This document shows, one piece after another, positions 2,178 to 5,159 of a stretch of 5,159 bases of DNA. A program made the translations under genes and the position numbers. The notes below the pieces were generated by a model that saw nothing but the letters and a program-made list of their open reading frames with translations, did no database searches and was not told the DNA's origin. The DNA is from a virus (taxonomy: Duplodnaviria; Heunggongvirae; Uroviricota; Caudoviricetes). The stretch lies in the IMG/VR virus record IMGVR_UViG_2698536403_000005, positions 1 to 5,159 of that record. One strand, given 5' to 3'. Position 1 is the stretch's first letter. The number at the start of each line of letters is the position of its first letter.

Positions 2178-2378
2178 TCATTTCTCGTTATTTGTCATGC
2201 TGGCCGGGCGCAGATGCGTTGCATCTGTTGACAGCCTTCTTCTGCAGGCTTCAATAACCCACGCTGAAAAGTTTCCTGAACCTTTCAGATCAAGAGCGAT
2301 GTTAATTTGTTCAATCATCTGGTTTGGAAATCGGATGTTGCGGGTTGTTGTTCTGCGGGTTCTGTTCTTTGATGACAT
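2178..2378 (-). CDS. Small putative DNA-binding protein (ribbon-helix-helix / Arc-MetJ-like fold suspected), 66 aa
   Basis: Minus-strand ATG (complement of 2376-2378) preceded by GGGGA at appropriate spacing. Translation MSSKNRTRRTTTRNIRFPNQMIEQINIALDLKGSGNFSAWVIEACRRRL… has a basic N-terminal tail, then a beta-strand-like IRFP segment and two helices in the pattern of RHH proteins. Family assignment is from pattern only. Confidence 0.5.
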   Translation of the reverse strand: MSSKNRTRRTTTRNIRFPNQMIEQINIALDLKGSGNFSAWVIEACRRRLSTDATHLRPASMTNNEK

Positions 2379-2539
2379 AATGTTTCCCCATATTCAGTGT
2401 TGCTGATTTGTATTATCTGAAGTTGCTTTTACGTTAATTTGACGCAGATCAATTAATACGATACCTGCGTCATAATTGATTATTTCTCGTGGTTTGATGG
2501 CGTACACACATGTTGTGATAAACCTTATATAGATGATAA

Positions 2540-2601
2540 TCATTATCATTTCGTGGGTCCTTTCCGGCGATCCGACCGGTTACGGGGCGGCGACCTCGCG
2601 G
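2540..2601 (+). other. cos: cos site core: cosQ-proximal region and cosN; 12-nt cohesive-end sequence GGGCGGCGACCT at 2585-2596
   Basis: The stretch ~2385-2630 is near-identical to the lambda right-end/left-end junction as I recall it from lambda and cosmid cos fragments (…GGTCCTTTCCGGTGATCCGACAGGTTACG|GGGCGGCGACCTCGCGGGTTTTCGCTATTTATGAAAATTTT…). Here it reads …gggtcctttccggcgatccgaccggttacg|gggcggcgacctcgcgggttttcgctatttatgaaaattttt…. Location immediately upstream of Nu1 is canonical. Confidence 0.75.
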
Positions 2602-2635
2602 GTTTTCGCTATTTATGAAAATTTTTAGGGAAAAA

Positions 2636-2750
2636 TCAGATCCGTTCTTCTTCTTTTTAACTGATTGATTATCAATAGAATTTTAAAAATATAAAAGGAT
2701 CTGACAAAGGCTGTTTTTGTTAGAAAACGCCATTTTCAGATCCTTTCTGG
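2636..2750 (+). repeat. cosB: three R-element repeats (R3 2636-2650 tcagatccgttcttc; R2 inverted 2694-2704 aaaggatctga; R1 2736-2750 tcagatcctttctgg) with an IHF-consensus site (taactgattgatt, 2658-2670) between R3 and R2
   Basis: Three copies of TCAGATCC(G/T)TTCT, two direct and one inverted, with R3-R1 spacing of 100 bp. This mirrors the lambda cosB R3-I1-R2-R1 layout, but the repeat sequence differs from lambda's CGTTTCC(G/T)TTCT. The IHF-like site matches YAANNNNTTGATW. Confidence 0.6.
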
Positions 2751-2765
2751 TTCCCGGGGGAGTGT

Positions 2766-2855
2766 ATGAACGTCAATAAGAAAAAACTGGCCGATATTTT
2801 TGGCGTTGATGTCAGGACCATCACCGCCTGGCAGAGTCAGGGGTTCTGCTGCTGA
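2766..2855 (+). pseudogene. nu1: Terminase small subunit (Nu1) remnant: first ~26 codons intact, then out-of-frame junction and TGA stop
   Basis: ATG 2766; [26 protein letters not shown] matches lambda Nu1 N-terminus MEVNKKQLADIFGASIRTIQNWQEQG (the DNA-binding winged-HTH start); then FCC-stop at 2853-2855. Lambda Nu1 is ~181 aa, so ~155 codons are missing. Confidence 0.8.
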
Positions 2856-4449
2856 AGATTTTATGAAATCTCATGTGGAACCCACGATCAGGGATGTGCC
2901 GGTTTTACTCGATCTTGCACCGTGGTTTGGGCGTAAACATCGTGATAATACCCTCACGCTGAAACGTTTTTCATCGGGCGTGGGCTTCTGGTGCCTGGGC
3001 GGGGCTGCCGCTAAAAACTACCGTGAAAAATCCGTGGACGTGGTCTGCTATGACGAACTTTCCTCGTTCGAACCGGATGTCGAAAAAGAGGGTTCGCCAA
3101 CCCTGCTTGGGGATAAACGTATTGAGGGCTCTGTATGGCCCAAATCCATTCGCGGCTCGACGCCTAAAATCAAAGGCACCTGCCAGATCGAAAAAGCGGC
3201 CAACGAGTCGGCGCATTTCATGCGTTTTTATGTGCCCTGCCCACACTGTGGGGAGGAGCAGTATCTGAAATTTGGCGATGAATCCACGCCTTTTGGCCTT
3301 AAATGGGAGAAGGACAGCCCCGAAAGCGTTTTCTACCTCTGTGAACATCATGGCTGCGTGATCCATCAGTCTGAGCTTGACCAGAGCAACGGGCGGTGGA
3401 TCTGTGAAAACACGGGGATGTGGACCCGTGACGGTCTGACGTTTTTCAGCGCCGCGGATAATGAAATTCCGCCGCCGCGCTCCATCACGTTCCATATCTG
3501 GACGGCGTACAGTCCGTTCACCACCTGGGTACAGATAGTCTATGACTGGCTGGATGCACTGAAAGATCCCAACGGCCTGAAAACCTTTGTGAACACCACG
3601 CTGGGCGAGACCTGGGAAGAGGCCGTGGGCGAAAAACTCGATCACCAGGTACTGATGGATAAGGTCGTGCATTACACGGCGGCGGTGCCAGCCCGGGTGG
3701 TTTATCTGACGGCGGGCATTGACTCGCAGCGAAACCGTTTTGAGATGTATGTCTGGGGATGGGCACCGGGAGAGGAAGCTTTTCTGGTGGATAAAATCAT
3801 CATTATGGGCCGTCCCGATGAGGAAGAGACGCTGTTACGTGTGGATGCGGCGATCAACAAAAAATACTGCCATGCAGACGGAACCGAAATGACCATTTCC
3901 CGTGTCTGCTGGGACACCGGGGGGATCGATGGTGAAATTGTCTATCAGAGGTCAAAAAAACACGGTGTTTTCCGGGTGCTGCCGGTAAAAGGCGCATCTG
4001 TCTATGGCAAGCCGGTGATCACCATGCCGAAAACCCGCAATCAGCGGGGCGTGTATCTGTGTGAAGTGGGGACGGACACCGCAAAAGAAATTCTCTATGC
4101 CCGTATGAAAGCCGATCCCACGTCTGCGGATGAAGCCACGTCGTATGCCATCCGTTTTCCTGATGATCCGGAGATTTTTTCGCAGACAGAGGCGCAGCAA
4201 CTGGTCGCGGAAGAGCTTGTGGAGAAGTGGGAAAAAGGAAAGATGCGTCTGCTGTGGGATAACAAAAAGCGGCGTAACGAAGCGCTGGACTGCCTGGTGT
4301 ATGCCTACGCGGCATTACGTGTGTCCGTGCAACGCTGGCAGCTTGATCTGGCTGTACTGGCAAAATCCCGGGAAGAAGAGACGACCCGGCCAACCCTTAA
4401 AGAACTGGCAGCGAAGCTGTCCGGAGGAGTGAATGGTTACAGTCGCTGA
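2848..4449 (+). pseudogene. A: Terminase large subunit (gpA) homologue lacking the N-terminal ~105-110 residues
   Basis: From [40 protein letters not shown]… to the end, the translation is collinear with lambda gpA from about residue 105 (DAENFMKTHVEPTIRDIPSLLALAPWYGKKHRDNTLTMKRF…), including CPHCGEEQYLKFGD, HIWTAYSPFTTWVQIV and KKRRNEALDC. The Nu1-interaction region and the N-terminal part of the packaging ATPase are absent. The only upstream in-frame starts are TTG 2800 and ATG 2809 without a Shine-Dalgarno; ATG 2863 lies 8 nt after the Nu1-remnant stop. Confidence 0.8.
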
Positions 4450-4639
4450 ACTACAGGCGCTGCGTCAGGCGCGCCTTGATTTATTAACCGGTAAACGGGT
4501 GGTGTCTGTCCAGAAAGATGGTCGCAGAATTGAATATACGGCGGCTTCTCTGGATGAGCTTAACCGGGCGATCAATGATGCGGAGTCGGTACTGGGGACA
4601 ACCCGACGTCGCCGTCGTCCGCTGGGAGTGAGGTTATGA
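4433..4639 (+). CDS. W: gpW-like head completion protein
   Basis: MVTVAELQALRQARLDLLTGKRVVSVQKDGRRIEYTAASLDELNRAINDAE…TTRRRRRP matches lambda W (…[38 protein letters not shown]…QRRRGP). ATG 4433 preceded by GGAGGA; the start overlaps the end of A and the stop overlaps the B start (ATGA at 4636-4639), as in lambda. Confidence 0.85.
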   Translation: MVTVAELQALRQARLDLLTGKRVVSVQKDGRRIEYTAASLDELNRAINDAESVLGTTRRRRRPLGVRL

Positions 4640-4857
4640 AACGAACGCCTGTCCTGATTGATGTGAACGGCGTTCCGCTTCGTGAGAGTCTCAGCTACAA
4701 CGGGGGCGGCGCAGGATTTGGCGGGCAAATGGCGGAGTGGTTGCCACCGGCGCAGAGTGCCGATGCGGCCCTGCTATGCGCGGGTTTTCTTTTGCGCGCT
4801 CGGGCGCGAGATGGGGGCAGCAAGTCTTTCGGTACCACAACAGCAGGTACAGCTTGA
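4636..4857 (+). pseudogene. B: Portal protein (gpB) remnant: ~47 N-terminal codons homologous to portal, then frameshifted junk to stop
   Basis: MKRTPVLIDVNGVPLRESLSYNGGGAGFGGQMAEWLPPAQSADAALL matches lambda B N-terminus (…SLREYAGYHGGGSGFGGQLRSWNPPSESVDAALL…); after ~4773 the frame no longer resembles portal and stops at 4857. Lambda portal is ~533 aa. Confidence 0.75.
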
Positions 4858-5158
4858 TGCTCCCGGAATGCTGGCTGAAACGGACGAGTACATGGCCGGA
4901 GGTAAACGACCGGCCCGTGTTTACCGGGTGGTGAACGGTATTGCGGTACTGCCGGTGAGCGGCACGCTGGTGCACCGGCTGGGGGGGATGCGGCCATTTT
5001 CCGGAATGACTGGCTATGACGGCATTGTCGCCTGTCTTCAGCAGGCAATGGCAGATAGCCAGGTGCGGGGCATACTGCTGGACATTGACAGTCCGGGCGG
5101 GCAGGCCGCCGGCGCGTTTGACTGCGCTGACATGATTTACCGCCTCCGTCAGCAGAAG
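4775..5158 (+). pseudogene. C: Head protease/scaffold gpC homologue (peptidase S49-like) lacking first ~25 codons; runs off the window end
   Basis: In the frame starting at 4775: YARVFFCAL…RVYRVVNGIAVLPVSGTLVHRLGGMRPFSGMTGYDGIVACLQQAMADSQVRGILLDIDSPGGQAAGAFDCADMIYRLRQQK, collinear with lambda C from residue ~26 (AYARVFFCALAGQ…SYQVMNGIAVLPVSGTLVSRTRALQPYSGMTGYNGIIARLQQAASDPMVDGILLDMDTPGGMVAGAFDCADIIARVRD). This frame is not in the supplied ORF track, which appears to omit ORFs with no stop inside the window. Confidence 0.75.
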
Positions 5159-5159
5159 C

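Follow-up and report, generated by a model that had tools for sequence, protein, structure and literature searches.

Other cryptic prophages are already well known to have an intact cos site beside dead packaging genes, and a complete cos in such a position is the norm in old cryptic prophages such as DLP12 and Qin of E. coli K-12. Each is the remnant of a lambdoid prophage at a fixed position in the chromosome; the gene order is cos-nohD-aaaD pseudogene-tfaD in DLP12 and cos-nohA-stfQ in Qin. Packaging in trans of a prophage with a dead terminase has been described for Sp4 of E. coli O157:H7 Sakai, in which nu1 is disrupted by an IS and which is nevertheless packaged, most likely by the terminase of Sp14, a prophage whose cos is near-identical to that of Sp4 (Asadulghani et al. 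2009, PMC2669165). The cos-type PICIs of E. coli (cos-rpp; Fillol-Salom et al., reviewed in PMC9026076) have a cos without R repeats or an IHF site, followed by rpp, which redirects the TerS of the helper.

The locus described here also has a complete cos beside dead packaging genes at a fixed chromosomal site. It was analysed as a window of 5159 bp, which is the entire contig of a draft E. coli assembly (GCA_001285345.1). With a probability that we put at roughly 0.8, this is the late-operon end of a prophage of the phage-21-like/lambdoid kind, recently inactivated by illegitimate deletions.

Context and distribution of the locus

The ends of the window contig fall within the lysozyme gene and the C gene, and its cos is flanked by lysozyme and Rz genes and by remnants of A, W, B and C. 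To the left of cos lies a gene of the YlcI/YnfO family (DUF3950; positions 2178-2378, minus strand; Pfam E=1e-18). Lambdoid prophages, including K-12 DLP12 (ylcI) and Qin (ynfO), conserve such a gene as the left-hand neighbour of their cos. No RNA family was found within the window with Rfam, and scans of the window for promoters and terminators gave only background levels, with no promoter for the A remnant.

The remnant was located solely through an exact-protein look-up of its truncated B product, which placed it in several assemblies (seven contigs examined). Window positions 2224-5159 recur at 99.97-100% identity in L008 and L009, on longer contigs (122.6 kb and 114.9 kb, respectively) of two further assemblies, and the sequence from a third other assembly (L010) starts downstream of the first deletion junction and has the second. 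In the longer contigs, the remnant adjoins yciE/F/G-trpABCD, that is, the trp operon. The left arm, where int, xis and replication genes would lie, is on none of the contigs retrieved. A search of 5426 complete E. coli genomes did not find the arrangement with both deletions, and the exact junction pattern had no match in the GTDB species representatives. That several assemblies contain the remnant means that it has been maintained for some time at least, a counterpoint to the recency discussed below.

Structure of the cos site

The original prediction held that cosQ and cosN are near-identical to those of lambda, and the alignment bears this out. The cosQ subsite for packaging termination, GGGTCCT (2555-2561, plus strand), matches lambda and phage 21 cosQ exactly and lies 30 nt upstream of base 1 of the cohesive end, the same offset as in the annotated phage 21 record. 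The 12-nt cohesive end of cosN, GGGCGGCGACCT (2585-2596, plus strand; nick sites flanking), is identical to those of lambda and phage 21 at 12/12 positions. Identity to lambda around cosN runs from about -4 to +41, while the interval between cosQ and cosN has two mismatches. The spacer between cosN and cosB (2597-2633, plus strand) is the same as that of lambda through base +41; it includes the I2 segment, which is needed for termination (PMC4669245). Its length equals that in both lambda and phage 21, which puts R3 at bp 50-65. A cosQ-cosN segment of this lambda-like kind is widespread, being present in 4236 of the 5426 complete E. coli genomes.

The cosB subsites follow in the register of annotated phage 21 cosB. 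R3 (AATCAGATCCGTTCTT; 2634-2649, plus strand) corresponds to phage 21 R3 at bp 50-65, and its core, CAGATCCGTT at 2637-2646, is that of Gifsy-1 R3. I1, with the IHF-binding consensus AATCAATCAGTTA (2658-2670, minus strand), is in the register of phage 21 I1 (bp 74-86). The inverted R2 (2691-2706, minus strand) has the core CAGATCCTTT at 2694-2703 on the minus strand and falls at the position of phage 21 R2 (bp 107-122); R1 (2734-2750, plus strand) has the same core at 2737-2746 and falls at that of phage 21 R1 (bp 150-166). The R cores thus occupy bp 53-59, 113-119 and 153-159, as in phage 21. The pattern CAGATCCKTT occurs three times, at the plus-strand, minus-strand and plus-strand core positions just given, against a chance expectation of 0.04, and three matches were found in 0/200 shuffles. 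The sole exact match in the window to the IHF consensus WATCAANNNNTTR is the one at 2658-2670 on the minus strand, between R3 and R2. A match of this kind is not rare by itself (at least one in 36/200 shuffles), and its support comes from its position in the register of phage 21 I1. The R3-I1-R2-R1 array had been called complete, and all four subsites are indeed in place. By its sequence, then, the cos is complete, with cosQ, cosN, the I2 spacer and a complex cosB of the Gifsy-1 specificity type.

Assignment to the Gifsy-1 type follows from both partners in recognition. The cosB differs from those of lambda and phage 21, whereas its R core and the recognition helix of the encoded TerS match Salmonella phage Gifsy-1: the helix reads VRTITAWQ in the window and VRTVTAWQ in Gifsy-1, compared to IRTIQNWQ in lambda and PRTIERWQ in phage 21. 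Gifsy-1 has the same R3/inverted R2/R1 order with the core CAGATCC[G/T]TTC, and its TerS N-terminus (VRTVTAWQSQG) is near-identical to that of the window. The likeness to Gifsy-1 has limits. The cosN of Gifsy-1 differs from that of lambda at bp 8, 9 and 11 (PMC4669245), while the window cosN is that of lambda; the DNA identity across cosB and the 5' end of Nu1 is only 73% overall; and the head genes of the window are phage-21-like (95%).

Within E. coli this mixture is ordinary. A query with positions 2597-2845 found 222 complete genomes at a coverage of at least 80% and 207 records at an identity of at least 99%; the segment is 100% identical among the complete genomes listed, where it is annotated as terminase small subunit. 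About 4% of complete E. coli genomes (222/5426) have the cosB/TerS type of the window, and E. coli prophages commonly combine a Gifsy-1-type cosB and TerS with a cosN identical to that of lambda and with head genes like those of phage 21. No isolated phage with the window cosB was found in INPHARED. The best full-length matches there, Gifsy-1 and SerU-LTIIb, reach only 73%, leaving no cultured phage to name as a candidate helper.

Deletions in the packaging and head genes

Nu1, A and B had been described as disrupted, and the nature of the damage can now be specified: the genes are truncated by deletions of 765 bp and 1509 bp, and C is truncated as well. The deletions were mapped by blastn and from the junction sequences. 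The intact reference was L007, a prophage with a full head-tail module from one of the complete genomes with the 100% identical segment; 5 of the 2936 aligned sites (0.17%) are different in the window. At the first junction (2844-2846), Nu1 residues 27-182 are missing together with A residues 1-108, and Nu1 codon 26 is joined directly to A codon 109, with an exact TT microhomology inside an imperfect 6/8 match. The Nu1 (small terminase) remnant (2766-2855, plus strand) consists of 26 native codons followed by FCC and a stop at 2853-2855; the intact protein of the reference has 182 residues. The second junction (4774-4777) removes B residues 48-530 and C residues 1-22 and fuses B codon 47 to C codon 23, at an exact CTA microhomology inside an imperfect 7/9 match. 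What is left of B, the portal gene (4636-4857, plus strand), is 47 native codons (4636-4776) and 26 out-of-frame codons, compared to 530 residues in the intact portal.

Other parts of the module survive. The remnant of the large terminase gene A, residues 109-642 (2845-4449, plus strand), has an open frame of 528 codons from an ATG at 2863, whose product is 99.8% identical to residues 115-642 of intact A. It is without the TerS-binding N-terminus and the Walker A motif (KSARVGYT, residue 76), and a search of the A remnant for a Walker A motif found none. In Pfam, the GpA_ATPase domain is matched at profile positions 73-247 only, while GpA_nuclease is complete. The W gene (4433-4639, plus strand), encoding the gpW head-tail joining protein of 68 residues, is intact (Pfam gpW, E=1e-22) and collinear with the W genes of two other loci, L001 and L007 (both WP_000259002.1). 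The C gene (head protease/scaffold, S49 peptidase; 4775-5159, plus strand) starts at residue 23, follows the frame of intact C from YARVFFCAL onwards and runs off the contig end; on longer contigs it is recognized as Pfam Peptidase_S49. The longer sequences (L008, L009 and L010, from other strains) also have a third deletion of about 15.4 kb, which extends from D through the tail genes and takes out capsid and tail functions, leaving a right arm of only about 7 kb. With its packaging and morphogenesis genes destroyed and its chromosomal position fixed, the locus is a cryptic remnant.

A short contig of 5159 bp in a draft assembly, ending in repeated phage genes, might be suspected of containing short-read mis-joins that only look like deletions. 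Both junctions, however, recur in the independently assembled L008 and L009, and the second also in L010; the suspicion of an assembly artefact is rejected on these grounds and carries almost no weight.

Probable reason for the intact cos site

The low divergence from the intact reference bears directly on how the preserved cos should be read. At 0.17% divergence, 0.38 substitutions are expected in the 226-bp cos, and the probability of finding none is about 0.68. The A, W and C remnants are also still open reading frames. Given the 5/2936 divergence and these open frames, an intact cos carries no signal of selection; zero changes are the expected outcome, and nothing suggests that cos is being preserved. 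The original prediction had offered two readings of the site, one that it simply had not yet decayed and the other that it marks a helper-dependent element. The first gains support from these numbers, and the second is not favoured. The cos would owe its intact state to its lying outside the deletions and to the short time that point mutations have had to arise in it, and the remnant is best read as a passive fragment of a cryptic prophage that is not adapted to the exploitation of helpers. As such, it is a clean example of the decay of a lambdoid prophage, with three illegitimate deletions at about 0.2% point divergence from an intact relative. Beyond annotation, its significance is small.

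Predicted competence and possible helper packaging

Judged by its sequence, the cos is probably still a competent terminase substrate. A TerS of the same specificity class, together with a lambda-like TerL and IHF, would be expected to bind R3, R2 and R1 and to direct nicks at 2584/2585 and 2596/2597. The requirements for the end of a packaging event are less exacting: specificity for cosB applies to initiation but not to termination (PMC4669245). As cosQ, cosN and I2 are all that is required for termination, a lambda-like terminase of any kind that reaches the window cos from another cos upstream could in principle terminate there. Cos terminases also require a second cos (PMC6687093). Productive packaging of the remnant would therefore call for a second site in the same orientation about one genome length away, and the element would have to excise and replicate as a concatemer, or else a neighbouring cos would have to be fortuitously placed. 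The distance between two cos sites in cos packaging is about 38-51 kb.

The proposal that a co-resident or superinfecting lambdoid phage with a Gifsy-1-type TerS cuts this cos and packages the remnant, thereby transducing the element or adjacent genes, is sound in mechanism and has the precedent of Sp4 in O157 Sakai (PMC2669165). The remnant has a complete cos with the same sequence as in apparently intact prophages, and matching helpers exist in the species, as the 222 genomes with this cosB/TerS type attest. The contig breaks within the lysozyme and C genes suggest repeated copies elsewhere, and so hint at related prophages in the same genome, one of which might act as a co-resident helper. 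Against this, only one cos was found in 20 kb of context, whereas packaging needs two, and the third deletion has shortened the right arm, probably leaving the element below the length needed. The cos shows no sign of selection, no adaptation of the satellite type is present, neither rpp nor genes for capsid-size redirection, and lateral transduction is reportedly not carried out by cos phages (PMC12829572). A mobilisable, helper-dependent element is on balance unlikely. If it were true, it would add one more case of prophage-prophage complementation beside that in O157 Sakai and would raise no new question.

More active roles can be imagined for the remnant. When a lambdoid phage with a Gifsy-1-type TerS is induced in the host or superinfects it, the phage terminase might cut the cos and package rightwards into trp ('lateral' or in-situ packaging), or be sequestered there, and the TerL fragment might compete for proheads, making the locus an entry point for transduction or an anti-phage decoy; we consider this very improbable. 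Outright interference is a shade more improbable still. Here the chromosomal cos would titrate or misdirect terminase, or a P-loop-less TerL with its nuclease and portal-docking C-terminus would poison the packaging of superinfecting phages of the same family. The uninterrupted 528-residue A remnant with its in-frame ATG at 2863 and complete nuclease domain, and the intact cos, speak for such a role, but the recency of the deletions (0.17% divergence) accounts for the open frame, and neither a dedicated promoter nor a convincing ribosome-binding site is evident for it. The remnant is also rare, being absent from the 5426 complete genomes and the GTDB representatives, and literature searches gave no precedent for interference of this kind. 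A literature search on lambda 'doc' particles gave irrelevant matches only.

Comparison with known systems

The passive cryptic fragment that we favour can be set against each of the systems introduced above. Like the cos-type PICIs, it is chromosomal, has a lambda-like cosQ and cosN and no terminase of its own, and its packaging would need the TerS and TerL of a helper. It differs in that its cosB is of the normal phage type and precedes a dead Nu1, and in lacking the int-alpA-rep flank of a PICI. Membership in the PICIs was rejected on the basis of the full R3-I1-R2-R1 array, the Nu1 remnant, and the phage lysis genes and head-gene remnants.

Sp4 is similar in that this lambdoid prophage, too, retains cos but is unable to produce a terminase; rescue by a co-resident prophage has been proposed for it. 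However, Sp4 is near full-length, is amplified and excised, and has been shown by experiment to be encapsidated, whereas the window remnant has lost portal, capsid and tail genes.

The closest likeness in organization is to DLP12 and Qin. In these, too, a ylcI/ynfO (DUF3950) gene is followed by a complete cosQ-cosN-R3-I1-R2-R1 and then by truncated packaging genes. The truncated genes of DLP12 and Qin are deletion-joined to tail-fibre genes, with capsid and tail genes gone. They differ from the window in having a lambda-type cosB and an apparently full-length Nu1 homologue, compared to a Gifsy-1-type cosB and a Nu1 of 26 residues. The window remnant still has W in full and the greater part of both A and C, and, at 99.8% identity to an intact prophage, it is much younger than either DLP12 or Qin.

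Gene content of the window

The window covers the late-region end of a lambdoid prophage and is the exact sequence of one entire short contig, CYBH01000071.1, in the draft E. coli assembly GCA_001285345.1. At its left end is the 3' portion of a lysozyme gene (1-363), followed by Rz (661-1128), a 74-aa ORF with no assigned function and no Pfam match (1152-1376), a TonB_C-domain lipoprotein gene (1720-2046; Pfam TonB_C, E=5e-15) and, on the minus strand, a DUF3950 YlcI/YnfO-family gene (2178-2378). To the right of the last lie the cos region and then homologues of Nu1, A, W, B and C; the head genes share ~95% identity with their phage 21 counterparts.

Lysozyme and Rz, which overlap in lambda and phage 21, are separated here by ~300 bp (364-660) containing a GC-rich hairpin that leads into a T run (about 455-490) and a 32-aa hydrophobic ORF (561-659) that matches phrog_6632 (unknown function, E=5e-20). 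The spaced arrangement is kept in L001, a related prophage of E. coli strain ARS-C301, and in L007, the prophage of strain CUVET17-1136. Both are otherwise collinear with the window and lack the ~273 bp (1119-1391) containing the 74-aa ORF, which matches phrog_2571 (unknown function) solely in mid-profile (positions 100-172 of 291) and may itself be a gene fragment. The lipoprotein-like TonB_C ORF belongs to a PHROGs family labelled 'Rz-like spanin' (phrog_1267), and an ORF in the same region of phage 21, gp73, is annotated as a TonB C-terminal domain protein. The ORF looks like a moron with a doubtful PHROG annotation.

The cos site and its specificity

The cos region was aligned with the circularised ends of lambda and phage 21, an intact E. 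coli prophage and K-12 DLP12. The original prediction of a lambda-like cosQ and cosN is borne out: cosQ (GGGTCCT) lies at 2555-2561 and the 12-nt cohesive-end sequence GGGCGGCGACCT at 2585-2596; around cosN, every base between about -4 and +41 is shared with lambda. The predicted R3-I1-R2-R1 array is likewise complete. Three CAGATCCKTT repeats begin at 2637 (+), 2694 (-) and 2737 (+), where shuffles gave an expectation of 0.04 and none of 200 reached three or more; the sole exact match to the IHF consensus AATCAATCAGTTA in the window (2658-2670, minus strand) falls between the first two. These elements occupy the exact register of the annotated phage 21 cosB (R3 bp 50-65, I1 74-86, R2 107-122, R1 150-166). 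The site is structurally complete, and prophages that appear intact use a cos of this type. Many complete E. coli genomes carry the segment 2597-2845 at 100% identity, continuing into a gene annotated as terminase small subunit; as a query against these genomes it was at least 80% covered in 222 genomes and matched at 99% identity or more in 207 records. One such prophage is L007, whose head and tail module seems to be complete.

The R sequence is unlike that of lambda (CGTTTCC...) or phage 21 (C[GA]TGTCGG...) and agrees with that found in the repeats of Salmonella phage Gifsy-1. The remaining Nu1 N-terminus also agrees with Gifsy-1 TerS (VRTVTAWQSQG) rather than with lambda (IRTIQNWQEQG) or phage 21 (PRTIERWQSQG), and any helper would therefore require Gifsy-1-type TerS specificity. 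It is cosB specificity that governs initiation; cosQ, cosN and I2 suffice for termination (PMC4669245).

Comparison of L001 (5333-5530) with window 2597-2765 shows that the cosB-TerS recognition cassette is swapped as a module among E. coli lambdoid prophages. The flanks and head genes are nearly identical (97-98%), as are cosQ (the same) and the cosN region, but cosB and the small terminase (169 aa, with an N-terminus lacking similarity to Nu1) are completely different. Gifsy-1-like R cores also occur at about 640-860 in the LT-IIb enterotoxin prophage fragment Escherichia phage SerU-LTIIb (KU052038.1), as GCAGATCCGTTC, GGATCTG and GAGATCCTTTC; its cosN position is divergent, and GGGCGGCGACCT is absent from that inspected stretch.

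Deletions in the packaging and head genes

From 2224 to 5159 the window is collinear with L007 save for two gaps, which account for the predicted disruption of Nu1, A and B and truncate C as well. The first deletion (765 bp; junction 2845/2846, with exact homology TT within a 6-of-8 match) removes Nu1 residues 27-182 and A residues 1-108. It leaves a Nu1 stub of 29 codons and an A fragment open from an ATG at 2863 (528 aa), which has lost its TerS-binding N-terminus along with Walker A (KSARVGYT, residue 76) and retains the whole nuclease domain. W is intact. The second (1509 bp; junction 4776/4777, with exact homology CTA within a 7-of-9 match) removes B residues 48-530 and C residues 1-22, leaving 47 native B codons and C from residue 23. 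The element is clearly incapable of packaging itself. Both lengths are exact multiples of 3, probably a coincidence (about 1 in 9); the genes brought together are in different frames, and so neither junction fuses them in frame.

Looking up the exact protein of the B remnant led to longer contigs from other assemblies with the same structure, 99.97-100% identical to window 2224-5159. These contigs reveal a third deletion of ~15.4 kb that joins D to a tail-fibre gene, eliminating the major capsid and all tail-shaft genes, and place the right end of the remnant ~7 kb from cos, adjoining yciE/F/G and trpABCD. The left arm, which would hold any int, xis or replication genes, lies outside every contig retrieved. 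The deletions were absent from the complete E. coli RefSeq genomes and GTDB representatives searched.

Rightward of 2224, in the DUF3950 gene region, identity to L007 and to two of the longer contigs (L008 and L009) is 99.8-100%. To the left, the window is 87-94% identical to or unalignable with L007 and L008, and 94-98% identical to L001; because the strains diverge here, 2224 is a sharp mosaic boundary. Position 1 of the independent contig L009 is the exact equivalent of 2224, which suggests a recombination joint or a repeat edge common to several prophages.

Why cos is intact

The favoured interpretation, with a probability of roughly 0.8, is the alternative raised in the original prediction, that cos has simply not yet decayed. 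Only 5 of 2936 aligned positions differ from L007 (0.17%), none of them in cos. At this divergence the 226-bp cos region should have gained 0.38 changes on average (probability of none ~0.68), and the A, W and C fragments that survive are all stop-free, so recency suffices to explain the intact site. The substitutions over these 2936 positions give no sign of selection on cos. Base rates point the same way: the K-12 cryptic prophages DLP12 (ylcI, full cosQ-cosN-R3-I1-R2-R1, nohD, aaaD pseudogene, tfaD) and Qin (ynfO, full cos, nohA fused to stfQ) both retain cos, and of 5426 complete E. coli genomes, 4236 carry a lambda-like cosQ-cosN segment.

The other possibility raised, that the remnant is packaged by a helper, is unlikely, although it has a published precedent in Sp4/Sp14 of O157 Sakai (PMC2669165). 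A matching helper could cut the window cos, and packaging would then run rightwards from Nu1 through A and onward, up to a second cos. For transfer to be productive, the element would also have to excise and form concatemers, or a second cos would have to be suitably placed; its right arm of 7 kb probably leaves it under-length. For lambda, the two cos sites must lie roughly 78-105% of a genome length apart, and Sternberg and Weisberg (1975) reportedly obtained 'doc' particles lacking tails from excision-defective lambda lysogens, which arose from one chromosomal cos. Only one cos lies in the 20 kb of available context, whereas cos terminases require a second, and uncut DNA jutting from the head blocks tail joining (PMC6687093). 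Lateral transduction is reportedly not performed by cos phages (PMC12829572).

Comparison with known systems

The helper scenario is essentially the Sp4/Sp14 case. Sp4 has an nu1 disrupted by an IS, yet its DNA is found in particles; the authors credited the Sp14 terminase, because the Sp4 and Sp14 cos sequences are nearly identical (PMC2669165). Helper-dependent packaging of the present remnant, if true, would be one more instance of a known phenomenon. Cos-type PICIs share the reliance on a helper terminase, but their cos is R-less and rpp-linked; the window has an ordinary phage-type cosB between remnants of phage lysis and head genes, and PICI membership was rejected on these grounds. The analysis confirmed the original observation and refined it with a Gifsy-1-type cosB, exact deletion junctions, a truncated C and a further large deletion beyond the window. 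Structurally closest are DLP12 and Qin, from which this remnant differs in being much younger and in its cosB class.
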